Below are positions 5,505 to 45,937 of a stretch of 64,000 nucleotides of DNA, piece after piece. Source of the DNA: Spirochaetia bacterium (GTDB lineage Bacteria > Spirochaetota > Spirochaetia > SZUA-6 > Bin103); contig OZ241863.1 of the NCBI GenBank assembly GCA_965203055.1, forward strand, positions 192,001 through 256,000, read 5' to 3'. The notes under the pieces were generated by a model. It was not told the DNA's origin. It did no database searches and was given only the letters and a program-made list of their open reading frames with translations. The position numbers and the translations under genes are program-made. Within the stretch, counting starts at the first letter, position 1, and each line of letters opens with the position of its first letter.

Positions 5505-6494
5505 TCACTTTTCCGGCTGCGCCTGCGCGCGCGGCGTCGCCATGATCTCGCGCGGCTCACCCGGTCCGGCGGCGTTGCGGGCTCGCACCTGGATCCGGTA
5601 GAGCACGCCGTTGGACAGGCCGGGCAGCGTCTGGCTGGTGGTCAGGTAGGTGCTGTCGGCGACGGTTCTCCAGCTCCGCCAGTCGGCGTCGCCGGGGCCG
5701 CGCAGCCGGAACTCGTAGGCGGTGATGCCGGCGTCGCCCGGATCCTCCCAGGCGAGGTCGATGCGGTGGTCGCCGGCCAGCGCCGTCAGACCGGCCGGCG
5801 CCGCGGGGGGCGCGCCGGTAGGCGCCGGCGGGCGCGGCGTCGCCGAGGTACCGCTCGGCGGGCTGGCGCCGGCGGCGTTGCGGGCGCGTACCTGGATCTG
5901 ATAGAGCGCGCCGTTGGACAGGCCGCGCCGCAGCGTGTGCCTGGTCGTCGCGTGCGTACTGCCGGGGACGGCTTGCCAGCGTGGCCAGTCGGATTCGCCC
6001 GCGCGGCGAAACCGGAACTCGTAGGAGGCGATGCCGGCGTCACCGGGATCGTTCCAGCCGATGCTGATGCTGCCGTCGCCCGCCCGCGCCGTCAAACCGG
6101 CCGGCGCGGCCGGCGCCAGCGGGCGCGGCGTCGCCGAGGTCGGGCTCGGCTCACCCGGTCCGGCGGCGTTGAGGGCGCGCACCTGGATCTGATAGAGCAC
6201 GCCGGCAGTCAAGTTTGGCAGCGTATGGCTGGTCGTGCCGTGCGAGCTGTTGGCGAGCGGTCTCCAGGGCCGCCATTCGGCGTCGCCGGGGGCGCGCAAC
6301 CGCACCTCGTAGGAGGCGATGTCGGCGTCGCGCGGGTCGTCCCAGCGGAGGTTGATGCTGCGGTCTCCGGGCAGCGCCATCAAACCGGCCGGCGCGGCGG
6401 GCGGCATGCTCGGTTGCGGCAGTTCCGTAGCGCAGCTTGCCAGCGCAATCACTACTCCGAACGCACTCAGGCGCTTGCTCATTCCGCTTGTCAC
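5505..6494 (-). CDS. Lipoprotein with 3 fibronectin type III repeats
   Basis: Lipobox LASC; three PAAPAGL..GD..I.L.W.DP.DA.I..YE...L.NG.LY.IQVRA.NAAG units. Confidence 0.88.
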   Translation of the reverse strand: MTSGMSKRLSAFGVVIALASCATELPQPSMPPAAPAGLMALPGDRSINLRWDDPRDADIASYEVRLRAPGDAEWRPWRPLANSSHGTTSHTLPNLTAGVLYQIQVRALNAAGPGEPSPTSATPRPLAPAAPAGLTARAGDGSISIGWNDPGDAGIASYEFRFRRAGESDWPRWQAVPGSTHATTRHTLRRGLSNGALYQIQVRARNAAGASPPSGTSATPRPPAPTGAPPAAPAGLTALAGDHRIDLAWEDPGDAGITAYEFRLRGPGDADWRSWRTVADSTYLTTSQTLPGLSNGVLYRIQVRARNAAGPGEPREIMATPRAQAQPEK

Positions 6495-7438
6495 AGGATT
6501 CCCTCCGTGTTCCTCTGGCGCAGATAATGTACGGTGCGGGCGACTCCTTCGGCGAGCGCGACCGCGGGCCGCCAGCCGAGCAGGTCGGCGGCCCGCGATA
6601 CGTCGAGCCAGCTCTCGCGCACTTCACCGGGCCGCGCCGGTCCGGCGGCCGCTGTGAGGTCGGAGCCGCACGCGGAGCGAATCAATCGAAACAGGTCGCC
6701 CGTGTGGACCGGGTTCCCCCCCGAGATGTTGAACGGCCCGGCGGCGCTGCTCTCCAGGGCGCGCAAGTTGGCCTGCGCTACGTCATCCACGTGCACGTAG
6801 TCGCGGGTCATCCCCGCGGGCTGATCGGGGAAGGCATAGATGGTCGGCCGTTCACCGCGCAGCAGCTTCTCGCTGAAGATGGCGACTACGCCGGCCTCGC
6901 CGTGTGGATCCTGGCGCGCGCCGTACACGTTGCCGTAGCGCAGCGCGACCGAATCGAGACCATGCTCCCGCCGGTAGAACTCCAGGTAGCGCTCGCCGGT
7001 CATCTTGTGGATGCCATAGAGAGACCGCGGCCGCAACGGCGCGTCCTCGGGAGTCGGCCGCGCCGCGGCGTCGCCGTAGACGGCGCCGCCGCTGGAGGAG
7101 AACAGGAAGCGGCCGACCTCGTGCTCCACGCAGCTTTGCAGGGTGGCGAGCAATCCCAGGCAATTTACGCGGGCGTCGAGCTGCGGATCGCGCGCCGAGA
7201 CGGCGATGCTCGTCTGGGCAGCGTGATGGCTGACCAGGTGCGGACGCTCCTTGGCGAGGATCGCGGAAAACTCCGGGCCGCCGGCGTCCGCTACGTGGAG
7301 CCGGGCGCCGCGCGGCACCTGTTCCGCTCGTCCGCTGCGCAAGTTGTCCACGACCGCCACTTCGTGGCCGGCGGCGAGGAAGAGCTCCGCCACGTGCGAG
7401 CCGATGAAGCCGGCCCCGCCGGTAATCAGAGTCTTCAT
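6491..7438 (-). CDS. NAD-dependent epimerase/dehydratase (UDP-glucose 4-epimerase-like)
   Basis: TGGAGFIG, YGIHK (YxxxK), RYGNVYG, RDYVHV. Confidence 0.92.
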   Translation of the reverse strand: MKTLITGGAGFIGSHVAELFLAAGHEVAVVDNLRSGRAEQVPRGARLHVADAGGPEFSAILAKERPHLVSHHAAQTSIAVSARDPQLDARVNCLGLLATLQSCVEHEVGRFLFSSSGGAVYGDAAARPTPEDAPLRPRSLYGIHKMTGERYLEFYRREHGLDSVALRYGNVYGARQDPHGEAGVVAIFSEKLLRGERPTIYAFPDQPAGMTRDYVHVDDVAQANLRALESSAAGPFNISGGNPVHTGDLFRLIRSACGSDLTAAAGPARPGEVRESWLDVSRAADLLGWRPAVALAEGVARTVHYLRQRNTEGIL

Positions 7439-7453
7439 TCGCTGCCGCCCGCC

Positions 7454-9391
7454 TCACTTGGTGTGCGAGGTGGACCGATTCGGCGTTGCCGAAGTCTGGC
7501 TCGGCTCACTCGGTCCGGCGGCGTTGCGGGCGCGCACCTGGATCTGGTAGAGCACGCCGTTGGTCAGGCCGGGCAGGAGGTGGCCGGTCGTGGTGTGCGT
7601 GCTGCCGTCGATGGCCCGCCAGCGCCGCCAGTCGGCGTCGCGCGGGGCGCGCAGCCGGAACTCGTAGGAGGCGATGCCGGCGTCGCCCGGGTCGTCCCAG
7701 CCGAGGCTGATGCTCAGGTCACCGGGCCGCGCCGTCAGACCGGTGGGCGCCTCAGGCGGCGCGCCGCGGGGGGCCGGCGGACGCGGCGTCGCCGAAATCT
7801 CGCCGGGCGCGCCGGCCCCGGCGGCGTTGCGGGCGCGCACCTGGATCTGGTAGAGCACGCCGTTGGCCAAGCCGCGCAGCAGGGTATAGCCGGTGGTGTC
7901 GTGAGAACTGCCGGCGATCGGCCTCCAGTCGGGCCAGTAGGCGTCCTGGGCGGGGCGGATGCGATACTCGTAGGAGGCGATGCCGGGGTCGCCCGGATCG
8001 TTCCAACTGAGGCTGATGCTGCGGTCTCCGGTCAGCGCCGCCAGCGCGCCCGGCGCTGCCGGCAGCAGCGGGCGCGGCGTGGCGGAGGTCTCGCCGGGCG
8101 CGCCGGGGCCGGCGGCGTTGCGGGCGCGTATCTGGATCTGGTAGAGCACGCCGTTGGCCAGGCCGCGCAGCAGGGTATAGCCGATGGTGTCGTAGGAACT
8201 GCCGGCGATCGGCCTCCAGTCGGGCCAGTCGGCGTGCTGCGCGGGGCGGATGCGGTACTCGTAGGAGGCGATGCCGGGGTCGCCGGGATCGTTCCAGTCG
8301 AGGCTGATGCTGCGGTCGCCCGGCAGCGAGGTGAGGCCGCTCGGCGCCGCCGGAGGCGGTGGGAGCGGCGTTGCGGAGGTCTCGCCGGGGGCGCCGGGGC
8401 CGGCGGCGCTGCGGGCGCGTATCTGGATCTGGTAGAGCAGGCCGTTGGCGAGGCCGCGCAGGAGCGTAAAGCCGGTGGTCGCGTGGGAGCTGCCGGCGAT
8501 CGCGTTCCAGTCGGGCCAGTCGGCGTGCTGCGCGGGGCGGATGCGGTACTCGTAGGAGGCGATGGCGGGATCGCCGGGGTCGTTCCAGTCGAGGCTGATG
8601 CTGCGGTCGCCCGGCAGCGCGGTAAGGCCGCTCGGCGCGTCCGGCGGCGGCGAGAGCGGCGTTGCGGAGATCTCGCTGGCCGCCCCGGTGCCGGCGGCGT
8701 TCAGGGCGCGTACCTGGATCCGGTAGGCAACGCCGGCAGTCAGGCCGGGCAGGGTGTGGCTGGTAGTCGCGTGGGTACTGCCGGCGGCGATCTTCCAGTC
8801 CCGCCAATCGGCGTCGCGGGGAGCGCGCAGGCGCACTTCGTAGGAGACGATGCCGGCGTCGTGCGGGTCGTCCCAGTCGAGGTCGATGCTGCGGTCGCCC
8901 GGTTGCGCCGTCAGACCGCCCGGCGCCGCCGGTGCCAGCGGCAGCGGCGTTGCGGAGGTTTCGCTCGGCGGGCTGACGCCGGCCGCGCTGCGCGCGCGCA
9001 CCTGGATCCGGTAGGGCACGCCGGGGGTCAGACCGGGCAGCGCGTGGCTGGTAGTCGCGCCGGTACTGCCGGCGACGACCTTCCAGCTCCGCCAGTCGGC
9101 GTCGCGGGGAGCGCGCAGGCGCACTTCGTAGGAGACGATGCCGGCGTCGTGCGGGTCGTCCCAGTCGAGGTCGATGCTGCGGTCGCCCGGTCGCGCCGTC
9201 AGGCCGCCCGGCGCCGCCGGCGGCGAGGCTTCCGGCGCCGCTTCCGGCAGCTCGGACGGCGCTTCCGGCGCCGCCGGCCCCGGCGCGCCTGCCGCCGGCG
9301 AAACGCAGCTCGCCGCGCCAAGTACCACCGCCGCCACTGCCAAGGTTCCTGCCAATGGCATTACCAGTCGTTTGATCATTCCGCTTGTCAT
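7454..9391 (-). CDS. Probable lipoprotein with 6 fibronectin type III repeats
   Basis: ATG 9391 overlaps the upstream stop (ATGA); signal peptide ending AASC; six ~95-aa FN3 units. Confidence 0.88.
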   Translation of the reverse strand: MTSGMIKRLVMPLAGTLAVAAVVLGAASCVSPAAGAPGPAAPEAPSELPEAAPEASPPAAPGGLTARPGDRSIDLDWDDPHDAGIVSYEVRLRAPRDADWRSWKVVAGSTGATTSHALPGLTPGVPYRIQVRARSAAGVSPPSETSATPLPLAPAAPGGLTAQPGDRSIDLDWDDPHDAGIVSYEVRLRAPRDADWRDWKIAAGSTHATTSHTLPGLTAGVAYRIQVRALNAAGTGAASEISATPLSPPPDAPSGLTALPGDRSISLDWNDPGDPAIASYEYRIRPAQHADWPDWNAIAGSSHATTGFTLLRGLANGLLYQIQIRARSAAGPGAPGETSATPLPPPPAAPSGLTSLPGDRSISLDWNDPGDPGIASYEYRIRPAQHADWPDWRPIAGSSYDTIGYTLLRGLANGVLYQIQIRARNAAGPGAPGETSATPRPLLPAAPGALAALTGDRSISLSWNDPGDPGIASYEYRIRPAQDAYWPDWRPIAGSSHDTTGYTLLRGLANGVLYQIQVRARNAAGAGAPGEISATPRPPAPRGAPPEAPTGLTARPGDLSISLGWDDPGDAGIASYEFRLRAPRDADWRRWRAIDGSTHTTTGHLLPGLTNGVLYQIQVRARNAAGPSEPSQTSATPNRSTSHTK

Positions 9392-24845: not shown

Positions 24846-24968
24846 GGCGCCATGGTAGCACGCCCGGCTGCCGCCGATGCCGGCGCATTTCCAAATGTAG
24901 GTACGCGTCTTGCCGCTTGGCGGCCAAGTCCATTTCCAGCGTAGGAGGACGTTCTCGGCGATCTTGAA

Positions 24969-26327
24969 TCACCGGTCTACCGGCGCCTGCCGATCCTCGC
25001 CGGGGCGGTCGAATCCGGCGCCGGCGTGGCGGTAGCGGTGATGGGCGGCGCACAGCAGGCGGAGATTGTTCGGCTCGGCGGCGCCGCCGCAGGCATACGG
25101 CACGACGTGATCGATCTGCAGCAGGTGTTGGGAGCCGCAGCGGCGCCCGCTGGTGCGGTCCACGTAGCGGCAGCGGCCGCGGTCGCGCCGCCAGACCTCG
25201 CGCTTGACCGCCGCCGGGATGGCGCGGCCGGCCACGCCGCCCGTCTTCGCTGCCGAAGTCCGGGTCCGCGGCGGCGCAGCCGGCTGCGCGCACGCCGCAG
25301 CCGGCCGGTCGAGGCGCCGCGTCTTCGGCGCCGAAGTGGTGTCGGTCGCCGGCTTCGCTGCCGAAGTGTCCGGGCGGTCAGCGGCTTCGTCTCCCGGCTG
25401 CGCCGGCGCCTGAGTCGATACCTTCGCCGCCGAAGGAGCGGCGCGGTCCGCGCCGGCCTCCTGCTTCGCTGCCGGGGCAGCGCCGCGAGCCGAGGCTGCC
25501 TGCGTCTTCGGCGCCGAAGTTTGCTCGGCTCCTTTGGCCGGCGCCGCGCGCCGCCCGCGCGGCGGCCGGGCCGGGTCGTGGCGGTCGAGCCCTTCCCGCA
25601 CCAGCCGCCCCATGAGCTGCCCCATCGTCAGATGCGGATCGACGTGGGACAGGAGGCCCTTGAGCCGCTCCAAGCCGCGCCGGCACTCATCGTCGATCAC
25701 CGCCTTGAGCTCCCAGCGCCCGCCGCCCAGGGGCCGCACCCGATCCGCCGGCGCCGCCAGCTCCGGGTCCACCTCGGCCAGCAAACTGCATCACCTCCCG
25801 GCTGCTCTTGCCGGACGCCTGCTCCACCAGCTCCCGCCGCGCCTCCGGGTCCAGCACCGGCGCCAGCGCCGGTTCCGCTCCGCCGGCCGCGGCGGCGCCG
25901 CGCCGTCCAGCGACTGAGCGGCAGCCCCGCACCCGGCCCCGCCCGGCGCGCTACGCGCCGCGCGCTCCTTCTTGCGCTCCTGCCGGTCGAAGGCGTTCTG
26001 CAACTGCGCGGCCGCGTTCAGCGTCATCGTGCCATTCTGCAGGCGCTCGCGCACGCCCTCGACGTCCGCGCAGAGCCGCATCGCCTTGATGCGCCGCCAC
26101 GCTGCGGCGTCGCTGTAGCCCAGCTCGCGCACTGCGTAATCGAACAGGCTGGAGAACCCGCGGCGCAGATACAGGCGGCGCTTCTGAATCTCGCGCAGGT
26201 GGTCGATCACGACCACTTCGAGATGGTGTTCGACGCGGGAAAGTTCCTTGGTCCGCTCCAGCAGGCGGTCGTCTGATAGGGCGGATACGGTAGTGGTGAC
26301 GGCCTCGTCGGAAGCACGTTTGTTCAT
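24969..26327 (-). pseudogene. HNH endonuclease, disrupted copy
   Basis: Near-identical to 42658-44004. A -1 indel (~25873) and a +1 indel (~25784) leave a TGA at 25791 in the shifted segment. Confidence 0.85.
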
Positions 26328-26333
26328 GACATA

Positions 26334-26362
26334 AGTATAATCATAGAAACTACTTGAGTCAA
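26334..26362 (-). promoter_or_regulatory. Sigma-70 promoter for a leaderless HNH transcript
   Basis: TTGACT-17 nt-TATACT-6 nt-ATG; palindrome ACTTGA-C-TCAAGT overlaps the -35. Confidence 0.75.
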
Positions 26363-26514
26363 GTTATTCGGGCCGGAAGATGCCATATGCGGGCGTGACT
26401 CGGCGGCGCATTTCCAAGCGGCTGGACGTTCCGTCAGATGCTACTGCCGAGAATGTCGCCGGCGTCGACAGGGCGCGATCTGCCGGGTACCGAGGGGCCG
26501 GCTTCGGCGCCGGC

Positions 26515-26626
26515 GGCATTGAGGGCGAGCAGGCGGGCGAGCACTTCGTCGCGGACTCCGGCGCGGTCCATGGCGGCGTGCAGCGGTACTCGTAGTACGC
26601 CTTTCCGAGGCTTCGAGGGCGGGATC
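26515..26626 (-). pseudogene. Fragments of a type IIG (Eco57I/MmeI-like) R-M gene C-terminus
   Basis: Segments translate as DPALEA.GKAYYEYR, LHAAMDRA and VRDEVLARLLALNA. Confidence 0.65.
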
Positions 26627-26698
26627 GGTACCAACAATTTGGAAGTGCGCCCCGGCGCTACGAGCAAAGGCCACCCGTGCTGCACGACGCGCAGGGGA

Positions 26699-41415: not shown

Positions 41416-42058
41416 ACGCAAACGGGGCGTTCCTTCCCTCGGTCGGCGCAAAGCTCAGCAAGGATCGAAATGGCGATTCGTGTTGTACTGTGAAGGCAGT
41501 AATACGGAATCATCCTATTTCAACGCCTTCAAGGAAACCTGTAAGAACACGCTTATCGGAGTGGAGGTTATTCCCGCAGCGGGGGTTCCCTACACGATTG
41601 CGAACAAAGCTGTGGAACGAGTCCGATCTCAGCGGCTCGGTGGCCGCAGAAACTCGTTCGAAAAGAACCAGGTTTGGGCGGTATTCGACCGCGATGAGCA
41701 TCCTCAATTTGAGGATGCTGTCGCGCTGTGCAGAAGTAACGGTGTCTGTGTCGGTCGTTCCAATCCATGTTTCGAGCTGTGGCTGATCCTGCATGAAAGG
41801 GATCACAATAGGTATGAGACACGTCACCGAATGCAGTCGATACTCAGTAATCTACGCCCCGAGTATGACAAGAGGCGGGGGAAGACTCCTGATTGCGAAG
41901 AAATGATCAGCCGAGTTGAGGATGCCGAACAGCGCGCCGAGCAACTATTGCTCCGCCGCCAGGAGGAGGGCAAGCCATACGGTAATCCCTCCACTACGGT
42001 CGGCCGGCTTACGCGCGCGATACGAACTGCTGACAATCGCGTGCGGGCACGGACCTGA
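41402..42058 (+). CDS. RloB family (Toprim-like) protein
   Basis: CEG..TE..YF, VFDRDEH, SNPCFELWLILH, NPST; TTG start is inferred. Confidence 0.88.
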   Translation: MARTRRKRGVPSLGRRKAQQGSKWRFVLYCEGSNTESSYFNAFKETCKNTLIGVEVIPAAGVPYTIANKAVERVRSQRLGGRRNSFEKNQVWAVFDRDEHPQFEDAVALCRSNGVCVGRSNPCFELWLILHERDHNRYETRHRMQSILSNLRPEYDKRRGKTPDCEEMISRVEDAEQRAEQLLLRRQEEGKPYGNPSTTVGRLTRAIRTADNRVRART

Positions 42059-42113
42059 CGCTACGGACTCCGCCGGTTAGCGTTCTCCGGGGCGTGTAGA
42101 GTGCTTAGCTAGC

Positions 42114-42494
42114 TTAGCCGACGGGCTCCAGCCATTCGGTGGCCTCGCCCAGGTTGATCGCCAGATGGGTCATGGGGCCGTCCACGGTCGCGCCGTGCCA
42201 ATGTTTCTCGCCGCCCTCGAAGCGGACGATGTCGCCGGCCGCGGCCACCACCGGCGGCTCGCCCCACACCTGCGCCGTGCAGCGCCCGGTCACGATGAAC
42301 AGCAGTTGCACGTCGCTATGGGTGTGCCAGTGGGTGGCGGCGCCGGCCGCGAACGACACGCGGTATACCCGGCCGCGGGCGGCAGGATCGGCAGCCAGGA
42401 AGCGCTGCAGGGTGGCGCCGCCCGTAAAGTGCTCCGTTTCCGCCAGCTCGACGGTGCGCCCGGCGGCGACAAGCAGTTCCATGCCGCGCAGCAT
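42114..42494 (-). CDS. Cupin domain protein
   Basis: THWHTH...Q, GD, EKHWHGA. Confidence 0.88.
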   Translation of the reverse strand: MLRGMELLVAAGRTVELAETEHFTGGATLQRFLAADPAARGRVYRVSFAAGAATHWHTHSDVQLLFIVTGRCTAQVWGEPPVVAAAGDIVRFEGGEKHWHGATVDGPMTHLAINLGEATEWLEPVG

Positions 42495-42526
42495 AGCAGA
42501 TCTGCCGCGCCGTCCGCAAGATCAAC

Positions 42527-42562
42527 GTAGGTAAGTAGGTAGGTAGGTAGATAGGTAGGTAG
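42527..42562. repeat. (GTAG)9 imperfect tetranucleotide tandem repeat
   Basis: gtag gtaa gtag gtag gtag gtag atag gtag gtag, abutting the element's left end. Confidence 0.9.
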
Positions 42563-42657
42563 GGGGCGCATTTCCAAATGTAGGTACGCGTCAGGCCGCT
42601 TGGCGGCCAAGCTCCGTCCTAGTCCCAGTGTAAGATGACGTTTCTCGGCGATCTTGA

Positions 42658-44004
42658 TCACCGGTCTACCGGCACCTCACGATCCTCGCCGGGGCGCCCA
42701 AATCCGGCGCCGACGTGGCGGTAGCGGTGATGGGCGGCGCACAGCAGGCGGAGATTGTTCGGCTCGGCGGCGCCGCCGCGGGCATACGGCACCACGTGAT
42801 CGATCTGCAGCAGGTGTTGCGAGCCGCAGCGGCGCCCGCTGGTGCGGTCCACGTAGCGGCAGCGGCCCCGGTCGCGCCGCCACACCTCGCGCTTGACCGC
42901 CGCCGGGATGGCGCGGCCGGTCGCGCCGCCGGCCTTCGCTGGCGAAGTTTCGGTCCGCGCCGCCGTCGCAGCCGGCCGGCCGAGGCGCCGCGTCTTCGGC
43001 GCCGAAGTGGTGTCGGTCGCCGGCTTCGCTGCCGAACTGTCCGGGCGGTCAGCGGCTTGGTCTCCCGGCTGCGCCGGCGCCTGAGCCGATACCTTCGCCG
43101 CCGAAGGAGCGGCGCTGTCCGCGCCGGCCTCCTGCTTCGCTGCCGAAGCGGCGCCGCAAGCCGAGGCCGCCTGCGTCTTCGGCGCCGAAGTCTGCTCGGC
43201 GCCTTTGGCCGGCGCGGTGCGCCGCCCGCGCGGCGGCCGGGCCGGATCGTGACGGTCGAGCCCTTCCCGCACCAGCCGCCCCATGAGCTGCCCCATCGTC
43301 ATGCGTGGTTCGACGTGGGACAGGAGGCCCTTGATCTGCTCCAAGCCGCGCCGGCACTCATCGTCGATCACCGCCTTGAGTTCCCAGCGCCCGCCGCCCA
43401 GGGGCCGCACCCGATCAGCCGGCGCCGCCAGCTCCGGGTCCACCTCGGCCAGCAACTGCATCACCTCCCGGCTGCTCTTGCCGGACGCCCGCTCCACCAG
43501 CTCCCGCCGCGCCTCCGAGTCCAGCACCGGCTCCGGCGCCGACACCGGCTTCCGCTCCGCCGGCCGCGGCGGCGCCGAGCCCTCCTGCGACTGAGCGGCA
43601 GCCCCGAACCCGGTCCCGCCCGGCGCGCTACGCGCCGCCCGCTCCTTCTTGCGCTCCTGCCGGTCGAAGGCGTTCTGCAACTGCGCGGCCGCGTTCAGCG
43701 TCATCGTGCCACTCTGCAGGCGTTCGCGCACGCCCTCGACGTCAGCGCAGAGCCGCATCGCCTTGATGCGCCGCCACGCCGCGGCGTCGCTGTAACCCAG
43801 TTCGCGCACCGCGTAATCGAACAGGCTCGAGAACCCGCGGCGCAGATACAGGCGGCGCTTCTGAATCTCGCGCAGGTGGTCGATCACGACTACTTCAAGA
43901 TGGTGTTCGATGCCGGAAAGTTCCTTGGTCCGCTCCAGCAAGCGGTCGTCTGAGAGGGCGGATACGGTAGTGGTGACGGCCCCGTCTGGAGCATGTTTGT
44001 TCAT
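42658..44004 (-). CDS. HNH endonuclease with N-terminal helical domain and low-complexity linker
   Basis: VWRRDRGRC...C.S...LQIDHVVP...GG...NL.LLC..HH; N-terminal GFSSLFDYAVRELGYSD.AAWRR. Confidence 0.92.
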   Translation of the reverse strand: MNKHAPDGAVTTTVSALSDDRLLERTKELSGIEHHLEVVVIDHLREIQKRRLYLRRGFSSLFDYAVRELGYSDAAAWRRIKAMRLCADVEGVRERLQSGTMTLNAAAQLQNAFDRQERKKERAARSAPGGTGFGAAAQSQEGSAPPRPAERKPVSAPEPVLDSEARRELVERASGKSSREVMQLLAEVDPELAAPADRVRPLGGGRWELKAVIDDECRRGLEQIKGLLSHVEPRMTMGQLMGRLVREGLDRHDPARPPRGRRTAPAKGAEQTSAPKTQAASACGAASAAKQEAGADSAAPSAAKVSAQAPAQPGDQAADRPDSSAAKPATDTTSAPKTRRLGRPAATAARTETSPAKAGGATGRAIPAAVKREVWRRDRGRCRYVDRTSGRRCGSQHLLQIDHVVPYARGGAAEPNNLRLLCAAHHRYRHVGAGFGRPGEDREVPVDR

Positions 44005-44010
44005 GACATA

Positions 44011-44039
44011 AGTACAATCATGGAAACTACTTGAGTCAA
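44011..44039 (-). promoter_or_regulatory. Promoter of HNH copy 2, -10 variant TGTACT
   Basis: TTGACT-17 nt-TGTACT-6 nt-ATG, with the same -35 palindrome as copy 1. Confidence 0.6.
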
Positions 44040-44126
44040 GTTATTCGGCCCGGAAGATGCCACCTGAGGGCGTGACTCGGCGGGCATTCCAAGCGGCTGC
44101 CGAGACGAGAATGTCGCCGGCGTCGA

Positions 44127-44248
44127 GCGGCAGGGTTTCTTCTTACGGCCCCAGGCGGCCTCGTCGATGGAATGTCGCTCCAGCCGCAGGCGTCGAGCGT
44201 GGCGCGGTACTTGTAGTACGCCTGTCCGGCGGCTTCGAGGGCGGGATC
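44127..44248 (-). pseudogene. Fragments of a type IIG R-M gene C-terminus
   Basis: Segments translate as DPALEAAGQAYYKYRA, LDACGWSDIP and IDEAAWGRKKKPCR. Confidence 0.65.
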
Positions 44249-44306
44249 GGGTACAACAAATTGGAAGTGCGCCCGTAGGTACCTGGGAAGTAGCACTCTC
44301 TCTTGG

Positions 44307-44561
44307 TCATGGATCGTCAGTATAGCCGTCCGGCGCCTCTACCGGGCGGGCGAAGTCTGGCCGCTCCTGTTCTTCGTCGAAGGCGTACCAGCCGTCGCGG
44401 GCGAGGACGGCCAAGCTGCCGTCCGGCAGCCGCACCATCAAGTCCCACTGCTCCGGCGGCAGGGGGACCCTCTTGATATGCTCCTTCATCTCCTTGATGG
44501 TGAGGGGGCGGCGGCGGCAGGGGCGTCCGTGGTAGTCGCTGTCTACGTTCTCGTCAGCCAT
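44307..44561 (-). CDS. Small hypothetical protein
   Basis: 84-aa ORF from ATG 44561 with normal amino-acid composition. Confidence 0.45.
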   Translation of the reverse strand: MADENVDSDYHGRPCRRRPLTIKEMKEHIKRVPLPPEQWDLMVRLPDGSLAVLARDGWYAFDEEQERPDFARPVEAPDGYTDDP

Positions 44562-44599
44562 CCGACCCGCTCGAACAGCATATATCGAACTGCAGCGCC

Positions 44600-44681
44600 A
44601 GGTACAGCAGAGAGGTCGCGGCAGCTCGACCGCCGGCTCCTCCAGGAGGTGGAGCTCGTCCCAACCGGCGTCCGGGCTCAT
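44600..44681 (-). pseudogene. Possible 5' stub of hsdR
   Basis: ATG overlaps the hsdS stop; WDELHLLEEPAVEL.RPL..TW resembles HsdR N-termini. Confidence 0.4.
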
Positions 44682-45937
44682 GCGGCTTCCGTATTCGGAG
44701 TGACGCGAAGTTCACCATCGAGAAGTAGGGGCATAAGGCCGCGCTTGGCCTCGGTCAATTTCGCCACGCGCTCCTGATTGACTTCAATGACGTGGTCTAC
44801 GCTGGATAGTACATGGACAATCTGCTCCTGCTCAGCAAGTGGAGGAACCAGCACGCCACAGGTGAGAAACTTGCTCTTGCTGACGATTGGCACCGCGGTC
44901 ATTCCCGCAAGGCCAACAAGTGTGCCGGATGCGAAAGACAAAGCATAGTAGAGATATTCTGACAAAACAGCGTCACCGGTTATGACGCTGTTGATCTGCT
45001 GATTCGTGCAGCATCTTTCTACGGCTATACCGACCTTACCAATGGTCCCGATGCACGTTACCATGACTGACCCCGGTGGTATTTCTCGCACCTGAGCAAG
45101 ACCATCTTCGGAAACATGGCGGCCGGTAGTGCTGACTCTCTTGGCTTTTCCAAGATCGGTTGGCGTAACGAAGGGAATCTCGCCGTTCCAGAAGGTATGA
45201 TTGCTAGTGCTCGGCGTACTTCCGGTTACTACCTCTCCAATCTCCGCAATGGTTTTACGATCCCAGCCGTCGGGAATATCACCTGCTTCTATCTGCTTGA
45301 ACCGCGTATGTCGTCCCGGCAGGCCGCGTGTCAGCATTACCTGCATCAGGCCGCGCTTGACGATCTGCGCTTGGTCGATGACCGCCTGGGTCTTCTCGAT
45401 GGCGTCGTCTATTGACGAAAGGATCGCGGCAATCTTGCGCTGTTCCGGGATTGAGGGAAGGGGTATCCTTACACGATTGATGTCAGCCGCACGTAAGCCG
45501 AATCGCGTAATGCCGTTTGCATACATCTGAAACTGCCGCTTGGCACTTTTCTCGCTGAGGGCATAGTGAAGAAACCGTCCGTCCAGATTGGCTTTCAGTG
45601 GACGAAGAATCGCAAGATGATATCCGCATACCAAGTTCGGTACTTCATCACCTACTACCGCGGGCACTCCGATATCGTCAGGGGTCTCTGAATCCTTCGT
45701 GATGATTACATCACCGACTCTCAATCGACAATTCTGAATCTCCCGTTCAGTAGCTGTCGCCTCCATATAGTCCATGTCAGCACGAATGACGTTGTGATTG
45801 TATACGTCGGAGTAGTTGCAGAGCCTTACAGAGCGCTCTCCGTCTACGGTCTTCTTGTCAACGCCGCTGAGACGCAGATCGACGACGTCAGCCAACGCAG
45901 TCCAAGGCCAACTCTCATTATCCTGGTTACCTCTCAC
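44678..45937 (-). CDS. hsdS: Type I R-M specificity subunit (orphan)
   Basis: Two TRDs with PSIPEQRKIAAILSSID and PPLAEQEQI..LSSVD conserved helices; KRGLM..LL.G; lower GC. Confidence 0.93.
   Translation of the reverse strand: MRGNQDNESWPWTALADVVDLRLSGVDKKTVDGERSVRLCNYSDVYNHNVIRADMDYMEATATEREIQNCRLRVGDVIITKDSETPDDIGVPAVVGDEVPNLVCGYHLAILRPLKANLDGRFLHYALSEKSAKRQFQMYANGITRFGLRAADINRVRIPLPSIPEQRKIAAILSSIDDAIEKTQAVIDQAQIVKRGLMQVMLTRGLPGRHTRFKQIEAGDIPDGWDRKTIAEIGEVVTGSTPSTSNHTFWNGEIPFVTPTDLGKAKRVSTTGRHVSEDGLAQVREIPPGSVMVTCIGTIGKVGIAVERCCTNQQINSVITGDAVLSEYLYYALSFASGTLVGLAGMTAVPIVSKSKFLTCGVLVPPLAEQEQIVHVLSSVDHVIEVNQERVAKLTEAKRGLMPLLLDGELRVTPNTEAA

Follow-up and report, generated by a model that had tools for sequence, protein, structure and literature searches.

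The conserved tail of a multi-copy HNH nuclease gene in a Spirochaetia genome as the probable terminus of a transposon with ISKra4-family ends

The HNH gene, its tail and the repeated element

The window analysed here is a 64,000-nucleotide stretch from a Spirochaetia bacterium whose genome is a single contig of 4.56 Mb with 68.8% G+C. It contains two copies of a 1.7-kb repeat, copy A and copy B, each with an open reading frame (ORF) for an HNH nuclease-domain protein (Table 1). Behind the stop codon of the gene in copy B, the plus strand reads CATTTCCAAATG at 42569-42580 (read directly from the sequence), GGCCGC-TTG-GCGGCC at 42594-42608 and TTCTCGGCGATCTTGA at 42642-42657, directly before TCA (42658-42660), the reverse complement of the TGA with which the minus-strand ORF of 448 aa ends. 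The tail of copy A (24882-24968) contains the identical words. A repeat search aligned 24882-24928 with 42565-42611 at 96% identity, and the similarity between the copies continues across the whole ORF (repeat families D3-D5, D7, D12 and D13); in a pairwise alignment, its onset at GGCGCATTTCC and its end at GGAAGTGCGCCC are both abrupt. This recurrence of the tail is far above chance.

A search of the genome with the element DNA returned 72 matches, which chained into 38 loci with a match of at least 1 kb, and the HNH protein had 44 matches. The boundaries of the element are reproducible: the tail is found at 28 sites with mutually unrelated flanks, and all 28 stop-side ends, as well as 25 ends on the upstream side of the gene, stop at the same letter. 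The ends are imperfect terminal inverted repeats. The gene-stop-side end reads GGGCGCA(T)TTCCAAA(A)TGTAGGTA(A/C)GCG and the opposite end, read inward, GGGCGCACTTCCAA(T/A)TTGT(T)GGTACC, with GGGCGCA(T/C)TTCCAA..TGT.GGTA common to both; the outer 27 nt of the tail form the inverted repeat with the other end. The sequence-only reading of this DNA had marked the tail as a conserved structured feature, and the start of that feature coincides with the first base of the terminal repeat, with a 1-nt ambiguity due to the G run at 42562-42566. The tail is the outermost ~95 bp of a 1.7-kb transposon-like repeat that carries the HNH gene. Searches against Pfam and NCBIfam detected no transposase domain in either long ORF of the element and no family match for the second of these, an antisense ORF of 412 aa (42715-43953). 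A small upstream ORF likewise had no match in Pfam, and we take both this ORF and the antisense ORF as non-coding.

Table 1. Coordinates of the HNH element and associated features (window positions unless a genome contig is named)
Feature	Position	Strand	Description
Copy A of the element	24881-26652		HNH ORF interrupted by one in-frame TGA
Copy B of the element	42563-44274		1.7-kb repeat
Flank outside the element	42519-42562		(TAGG)n-like microsatellite; last 8 nt are the probable left target-site duplication
Left target-site duplication, copy B, probable	42555-42562		GTAGGTAG; 7 of 8 letters as in 44275-44282
Terminal inverted repeat, gene-stop side (IRR type)	42563-42590		(G)GGGCGCATTTCCAAATGTAGGTACGCG; includes the CATTT-CC-AAATG dyad; sharp boundary in 28 copies
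Subterminal GC-rich double palindrome	42591-42612		GGCCGC-TTG-GCGGCC (42594-42608) overlapping GCTTGGC-G-GCCAAGC (42598-42612)
Degenerate (AGTCCC)n microsatellite	42612-42629		1-6 units in other copies
Short dyad AAGAT...ATCTT around TTTCTCGGCG	42632-42657		deleted in some copies
HNH gene	42658-44004	-	448 aa; helical N-terminal half, disordered Ala/Pro/Ser/Lys linker, C-terminal HNH nuclease domain
Likely HNH promoter	44011-44039	-	-35 TTGACT (44034-44039), 17-nt spacer, -10 TGTACT (TATACT in most copies)
Internal degenerate third repeat-core copy	44082-44094		direct orientation to the left end; consensus GGCGCATTTCCAAGC
Right arm	44100-44248		pieces of an MmeI-like restriction-modification gene, derived from its 3' end, as aligned with the long copies and solo genes
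Terminal inverted repeat, gene-upstream side (IRL type)	44249-44274		GGGTACAACAAATTGGAAGTGCGCCC; aligned with other ends
Right target-site duplication, copy B	44275-44282		GTAGGTAC
1,525-bp insertion sequence, example copy	G000:C1:273722-275246 (L031 223-1747)		1 of 8 full copies

The tail is composed of several parts. That both window copies keep their dyads around a variable middle, as first noted from the sequence, was borne out, with at least 24 copies genome-wide retaining the named dyads; in an alignment of 24 tails (22 from this genome and two from a related genome, G011) the hairpin word is almost invariant. The middle does vary between copies as described, although its nature had to be corrected, as it is a hexamer microsatellite, (AGTCCC)n on the plus strand, with n = 1-6. 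A third dyad, AAGAT...ATCTT at 42632-42655, had not been listed. The 3'-proximal half of the tail, which contains this dyad, is deleted in four of the 28 copies in this genome and is also missing from both G011 tails that retain the terminus; given these deletions, the TTCTCGGCGATCTTGA part of the tail, together with its AAGAT...ATCTT dyad, is dispensable.

Outside the stop-side terminus, several copies have tandem repeats immediately adjacent to the element, (TAGG)n in copy B and (GGACA)n, (CAGT)n or (CACT)n elsewhere (for example, the genome flanks at 328575, 4152289 and 2729392). These repeats may have expanded from the target duplication.

Ends shared with an ISKra4-family insertion sequence

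A motif scan of the genome for the end words led to another element bounded by these termini, whose length is constant at 1,525 bp. There are eight full copies at 98.2-100% identity, one copy with an internal deletion and one fragment, none of which lies in the window. The single ORF encodes 467 aa and scores 214.6 bits on the NCBIfam model transpos_ISKra4 (NF033572; cut-off 205) and 40.3 bits on Pfam UPF0236. With copies at least 98.2% alike and perfect 8-bp duplications, this ISKra4-family insertion sequence (IS) is apparently active. One IS copy, at genome position 623720, has inserted inside an HNH element, 16 nt upstream of the -35 of its HNH gene.

We aligned the four termini of the two elements. 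The stop-side end of the HNH element matches the transposase-stop-side end of the IS over ~38 nt (GGGCGCA.TTCCAAA..GTAGGTA.GCGTCAGGC.GC), a stretch in which the TCA is the transposase stop codon of the IS and the next bases are coding. In copy B the homology extends to ~42602, and the matching IS DNA is the C-terminus of the transposase and its stop codon. The upstream-side ends of the HNH element and the IS match each other in the same way, with an AATTTGT variant. This pairing of stop-side with stop-side and upstream-side with upstream-side ends holds in this genome and in the relative G010, whose IS (65% identity at the protein level) carries the same termini together with duplications of 8 bp. 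The two elements are not identical at their termini: position 8 of the repeat is T in most HNH stop-side ends versus C in the IS, and GGCCGC...GCGGCC is a perfect palindrome in the HNH element but not in the IS. The CATTT/AAATG dyad of the tail is a piece of the terminal-repeat core, and there is no such dyad in the IS ends.

Target duplications were scored allowing 1 nt of slack in terminal G/C runs. For the IS, eight of nine duplications were perfect 8-mers and the ninth matched at 7 of 8 positions. Among the ten HNH elements with correctly paired ends, three had perfect duplications and four matched at 7 of 8, a level that mismatched left/right pairs reached in 1.6% of trials. A further HNH copy outside these ten, at genome position 3383160, has a duplication that is perfect by eye. 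For copy A, the match is only 5 of 8. Contigs of a related organism (sequencing runs X3-X5) cross the right junction of copy B, so the insertion is shared. No empty site was found among contigs of four sequencing runs covering 41800-45000, where contigs break in the repeat and none joins across the element.

In both window copies, the tail points at the start of the next minus-strand gene. We scored -35-like hexamers (TTGACA-like, with TTG fixed and at least 5 of 6 positions matching; this is a hexamer test and not a full promoter model) near the element ends. Such a hexamer lies 12-18 nt beyond the stop-side end in 4/9 IS copies and 6/27 HNH copies, and at none of the upstream-side ends (0/9 IS, 0/11 HNH); control windows further out gave 0-2 cases. 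According to Guerillot et al. 2014 (PMC3942029), more than 20% of insertions of elements in the ISKra4 group have a sigma-A promoter 13-17 bp from the repeat-genome junction, and the single orientation in which this occurs is set by the asymmetry of the two inverted repeats. The position of the hexamers fits this published insertion habit.

An end-recognition signal had been one of two functions suggested for the tail at the outset, and it is supported by the sharp boundary, the inverted repeat shared with the other end, the match to the ISKra4-family IS end and the 8-bp duplications. We consider it highly probable that the tail is no RNA gene and that it forms the gene-distal end of a transposon that is derived from an IS and is non-autonomous, with transposase supplied in trans. 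The outer 27 bp are a terminal inverted repeat, followed by ~10-15 bp that are still homologous to the IS end. The ISKra4-family transposase (Mutator-like DDE), provided in trans, would bind the tail end and its partner at 44249-44274, cut at both ends and integrate the unit so that a staggered 8-bp duplication arises, such that the stop-side end would tend to face a host promoter after insertion. The remaining parts are accessory: the GC-rich palindrome may fold into a stem-loop where the HNH mRNA ends, or serve as a barrier to read-through, and beyond it come a slippage-prone hexamer repeat and the dispensable short dyad. We infer the mobilisation in trans, as we do any role of the palindrome.

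The age of the copies bears on the identity of the mobilising partner. Among 26 HNH element copies, the median pairwise identity is 90.9% and no two copies are more than 94.7% alike. They represent an old burst without recent movement, unlike the IS. With IS copies at least 98.2% identical and HNH copies at most 94.7%, recent mobilisation of HNH elements by the present IS is therefore not visible, and the partner may have been an ancestor of that IS. By majority letter, the palindrome is conserved at 0.955, the short dyad at 0.957 and the microsatellite zone at 0.88. The terminal repeat, at 0.924, is no better conserved than third codon positions (0.923), and present constraint on the terminus is therefore not demonstrable.

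Tests of the tail as RNA and possible roles of the palindrome

The other function suggested at the outset was that of a non-coding RNA scaffold running into the flanking DNA. In this alternative, a structured RNA similar to omega-RNA or HEARO would be transcribed where the HNH gene ends, run on into adjacent DNA and guide or regulate the nuclease. The position of the tail, at the 3' end of a nuclease gene and the edge of an element, is as expected for such an RNA, and three dyads are conserved. We aligned the 24 tails in the mRNA sense and searched for compensatory changes. RNAalifold gave no pair changed on both sides (0/19; covariation term +0.4), nor was there any two-sided change in the three named dyads (0/16 pairs), where 95.2% of cells were paired versus 95.2% in shuffles. 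Covariation, whose absence together with that of a transcript had been named as refuting the original suggestion, was thus not detected in 24 copies, at a power limited by copies that are only ~9% divergent. Folding energies were similar to those of shuffled sequences (MFE z-scores of +0.20 and -1.10 in copies B and A, respectively), and an Rfam search of 24000-45500 with E-values up to 1 had no match in either tail and two chance matches elsewhere. Four one-sided changes in the GGCCGC hairpin do leave G-U wobbles when the mRNA strand is read, which hints faintly at a role of the GC stem as RNA.

Other properties of the tail also argue against an RNA scaffold. Half of the tail is deleted in the four local copies and in both G011 tails that retain the terminus, and the outer 38 nt are accounted for by homology to the IS end, where they are partly coding. 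As had been stated from the sequence, the protein is not IscB or TnpB: the NCBIfam model guided_IscB matches only the HNH segment and is far below threshold (24.4 bits, cut-off 175), and HNH is the only Pfam match. With no compensatory change, no Rfam family and a tail that tolerates deletion, the non-coding RNA scaffold did not hold up, and we regard an RNA gene at this position as very improbable.

A more limited version of an RNA role is that only the outer 27 nt are the transposon end, and that the palindrome and dyad are mainly the 3' UTR of the HNH mRNA, folding into a stem-loop by which the transcript would be terminated or stabilised and read-through into the adjacent host promoter prevented. 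The palindrome would form a GC stem of 6 bp closed by a 3-nt loop, located 50-65 nt behind the stop codon, and it is kept even in the shortened tails of G011, where it follows the stop codon by 9 nt (n = 2). It was rated the best conserved non-coding part (0.955), its perfect form is specific to the HNH element and absent from the IS, and the elements often lie just upstream of host promoters. However, a scan of 42300-44500 for intrinsic terminators found no site; the stem exists, but the nearest T/U run is ~17 nt behind it. The named dyads also show no covariation. We consider a mainly untranslated-region function possible but clearly less probable than a transposon terminus that includes these parts as accessories.

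The palindrome could also be a target of the HNH protein itself. The protein would bind the subterminal palindrome through its N-terminal domain and nick or cut there, making the tail the cis site of a homing or copy-maintenance mechanism. The N-terminal domain is the most constrained part of the protein (dN/dS 0.17), and residues 32-195 weakly resemble the palindrome-binding domains of ParB, KorB, SopB and VirB. Moreover, the palindrome is confined to element tails, and HNH genes are intact in G011, where the transposase has no match. On the other hand, Z-scores below 8 may reflect nothing beyond a shared arrangement of helices, Foldseek returned nothing for the N-terminal domain, and 8-bp duplications with inverted repeats are signatures of DDE transposition and not of HNH homing. 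Recognition of the tail by its own nuclease is therefore doubtful in our view. An equally speculative variant would be a mobile system in two parts, with DDE-type ends for dispersal and the element-encoded nuclease for copy maintenance, through homing-like conversion or exclusion. If the HNH protein does act on its own tail, this would explain the tens of intact copies across a bacterial family, even without a transposase match, and would offer a first mechanistic entry to the DUF222-like HNH repeat genes, REP13E12 among them.

We also considered the palindrome as a genome-wide operator. The 18-mer has 42 matches in the genome at up to two mismatches, 34 of which are beside a terminal-repeat core in element tails, with two more in truncated tails, and this possibility was rejected.

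The HNH protein, the history of the element and related systems

In addition to the HNH domain (Pfam, E-value 3.4e-7), we searched for similarities of the 448-aa protein by structure. In the predicted model (pLDDT 77.9), the N-terminal half is helical, residues 277-353 form a disordered linker and the HNH fold follows. A PDB sequence profile search and Foldseek matched HNH domains only. VIA-align placed residues 32-195 near the DNA-binding domains of ParB, KorB, SopB and VirB (six among the top 34, Z 4.9-6.7, values at which a helical domain may share only a common helix arrangement), so that we treat a ParB/KorB-like N-terminal domain as a modelling lead only.

For 15 intact ORFs (105 pairs), dN/dS was 0.43 over the whole protein; by region, it was lowest at residues 1-125 (0.17), followed by the HNH part (0.39) and the linker (0.92). 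The protein, with its two folded parts, is maintained by purifying selection in many copies. The linker differs in length between copies and evolves neutrally; its DNA (window 42900-43300) is made up of recurring palindromic words (for example, CTTCGGCGCCGAAG) that translate into SAPK/SAAK-type repeats. In copy A, the ORF (24969-26327; protein match at genome positions 216972-218327) is split into 271 aa and 178 aa by the in-frame TGA. Since the ORF is split and the target duplication is unrecognisable, copy A is a decaying copy.

The HNH gene likely has its own sigma-70-type promoter, judging by the hexamers immediately upstream of it (Table 1). The ATG lies ~6 nt behind the -10, which suggests a nearly leaderless mRNA. 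A consensus promoter scan of 42300-44500 made no calls, including at this putative promoter of copy B.

The right arm of the element points to a complex history. Two long elements of 3.5 kb (L065, G000:C1:2835300-2839100, and L067) contain a whole, frameshifted MmeI-like gene upstream of the HNH gene and within the same inverted repeats. At least five solo paralogues of the MmeI-like gene are found elsewhere in the genome, and a solo paralogue matches MmeI_TRD (PF20466, E-value 1.3e-10). The third copy of the repeat core lies just behind the stop of the MmeI-like gene. Comparison of these forms suggests that the short 1.7-kb element is a deletion derivative that was later amplified. The third core and the MmeI-derived arm show that the history is more tangled than the simple swapping of a transposase for a passenger gene.

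We next compared the element across relatives. The HNH protein family has 17,788 representatives at E-values up to 0.001. Among 41 genomes searched (this one and 40 relatives), 24 had a match to the HNH protein, including 21 of the 23 other genomes of the same family; outside the family there were only two matches, both weak. A search of five relatives with tail DNA gave matches in G011 only, and two of the 16 matches there span the tail, the others covering the coding end or short pieces. G011 has ~35 HNH protein matches, and most of its tails have decayed. The 467-aa transposase has no match in G011, and therefore the gene persists there without that transposase. Around 13 distant HNH loci (50-57% protein identity), a search for inverted repeats produced one weak candidate (L046, 13 of 16), with the rest at chance level.

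ISKra4-family IS (p-MULT 4, Mutator-like DDE; PMC3942029) share with the HNH element inverted repeats that begin with GGG, asymmetric ends, an 8-bp duplication and insertions at a fixed short distance upstream of sigma-70-type promoters. In addition, the outer ~38 nt of the tail share homology with the end of a genuine ISKra4-family IS of this genome. In contrast to that family, the HNH element has no transposase gene, and its copies are old (at most 94.7% identity) whereas the IS copies in this genome are near-identical. Guerillot et al. 2014 (PMC3942029) describe four ISKra4-group elements that carry extra genes of unknown function; the terms 'HNH', 'endonuclease' and 'Spirochaet' do not occur in four of its supplementary files. 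Among the entries listed for ISKra4, DUF222-HNH and REP13E12, none describes an HNH passenger in an ISKra4-type element.

The HNH element can also be compared to other classes. Mobile insertion cassettes (MICs) and transporter IS are non-autonomous IS derivatives with passenger genes, and the HNH element resembles them in that a gene other than a transposase lies between the inverted repeats of a resident IS, with target duplications and many copies. It differs from them in its passenger, a nuclease gene under purifying selection in many copies, in loci (38 of at least 1 kb) that outnumber the autonomous IS (8), and in the MmeI-like right arm and internal third repeat core. The RNAs of IscB/TnpB systems (omega-RNA and HEARO, IS200/IS605) are similar in position only, since in both cases conserved non-coding DNA lies at the edge of a mobile element on the side of its nuclease gene; the HNH protein has neither RuvC nor the IscB architecture, and the tail has neither covariation nor an Rfam match. 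IS200/IS605 elements are not known to have inverted repeats or 8-bp duplications, both of which the HNH element has. A further system with a similar layout is REP13E12/DUF222-HNH of Mycobacterium tuberculosis, a dispersed multi-copy repeat of unknown function (Gordon et al. 1999, as cited in PMC10589994). Both are dispersed repeats of 1.4-1.7 kb encoding a helical N-terminal region and a C-terminal HNH domain, but the HNH protein here (P0001) has no match to DUF222 (PF02720) at E-values up to 0.01. DUF222 does appear at the N-terminus of 4/14 distant homologues, below threshold (16.2-21.2 bits, cut-off 24.4).

As an IS-derived terminus, the tail calls for a correction in how such regions are read: a dyad-rich stretch beside a nuclease gene resembles a guide-RNA scaffold, yet is a transposon end, and the same trap is present at each of the ~40 copies in this genome and in relatives. 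An HNH nuclease family would have spread to tens of copies by borrowing ISKra4-family ends and, with them, a promoter-seeking insertion habit. Multi-copy HNH genes, whose mobility has lacked an explanation, would thereby gain a concrete route of dispersal.

Elsewhere in the window, positions 5515-9244 contain two interleaved tandem-repeat families with units of ~290-306 nt, 6-8 copies and 60-82% similarity. These repeats are probably a gene for a repeat-domain protein.
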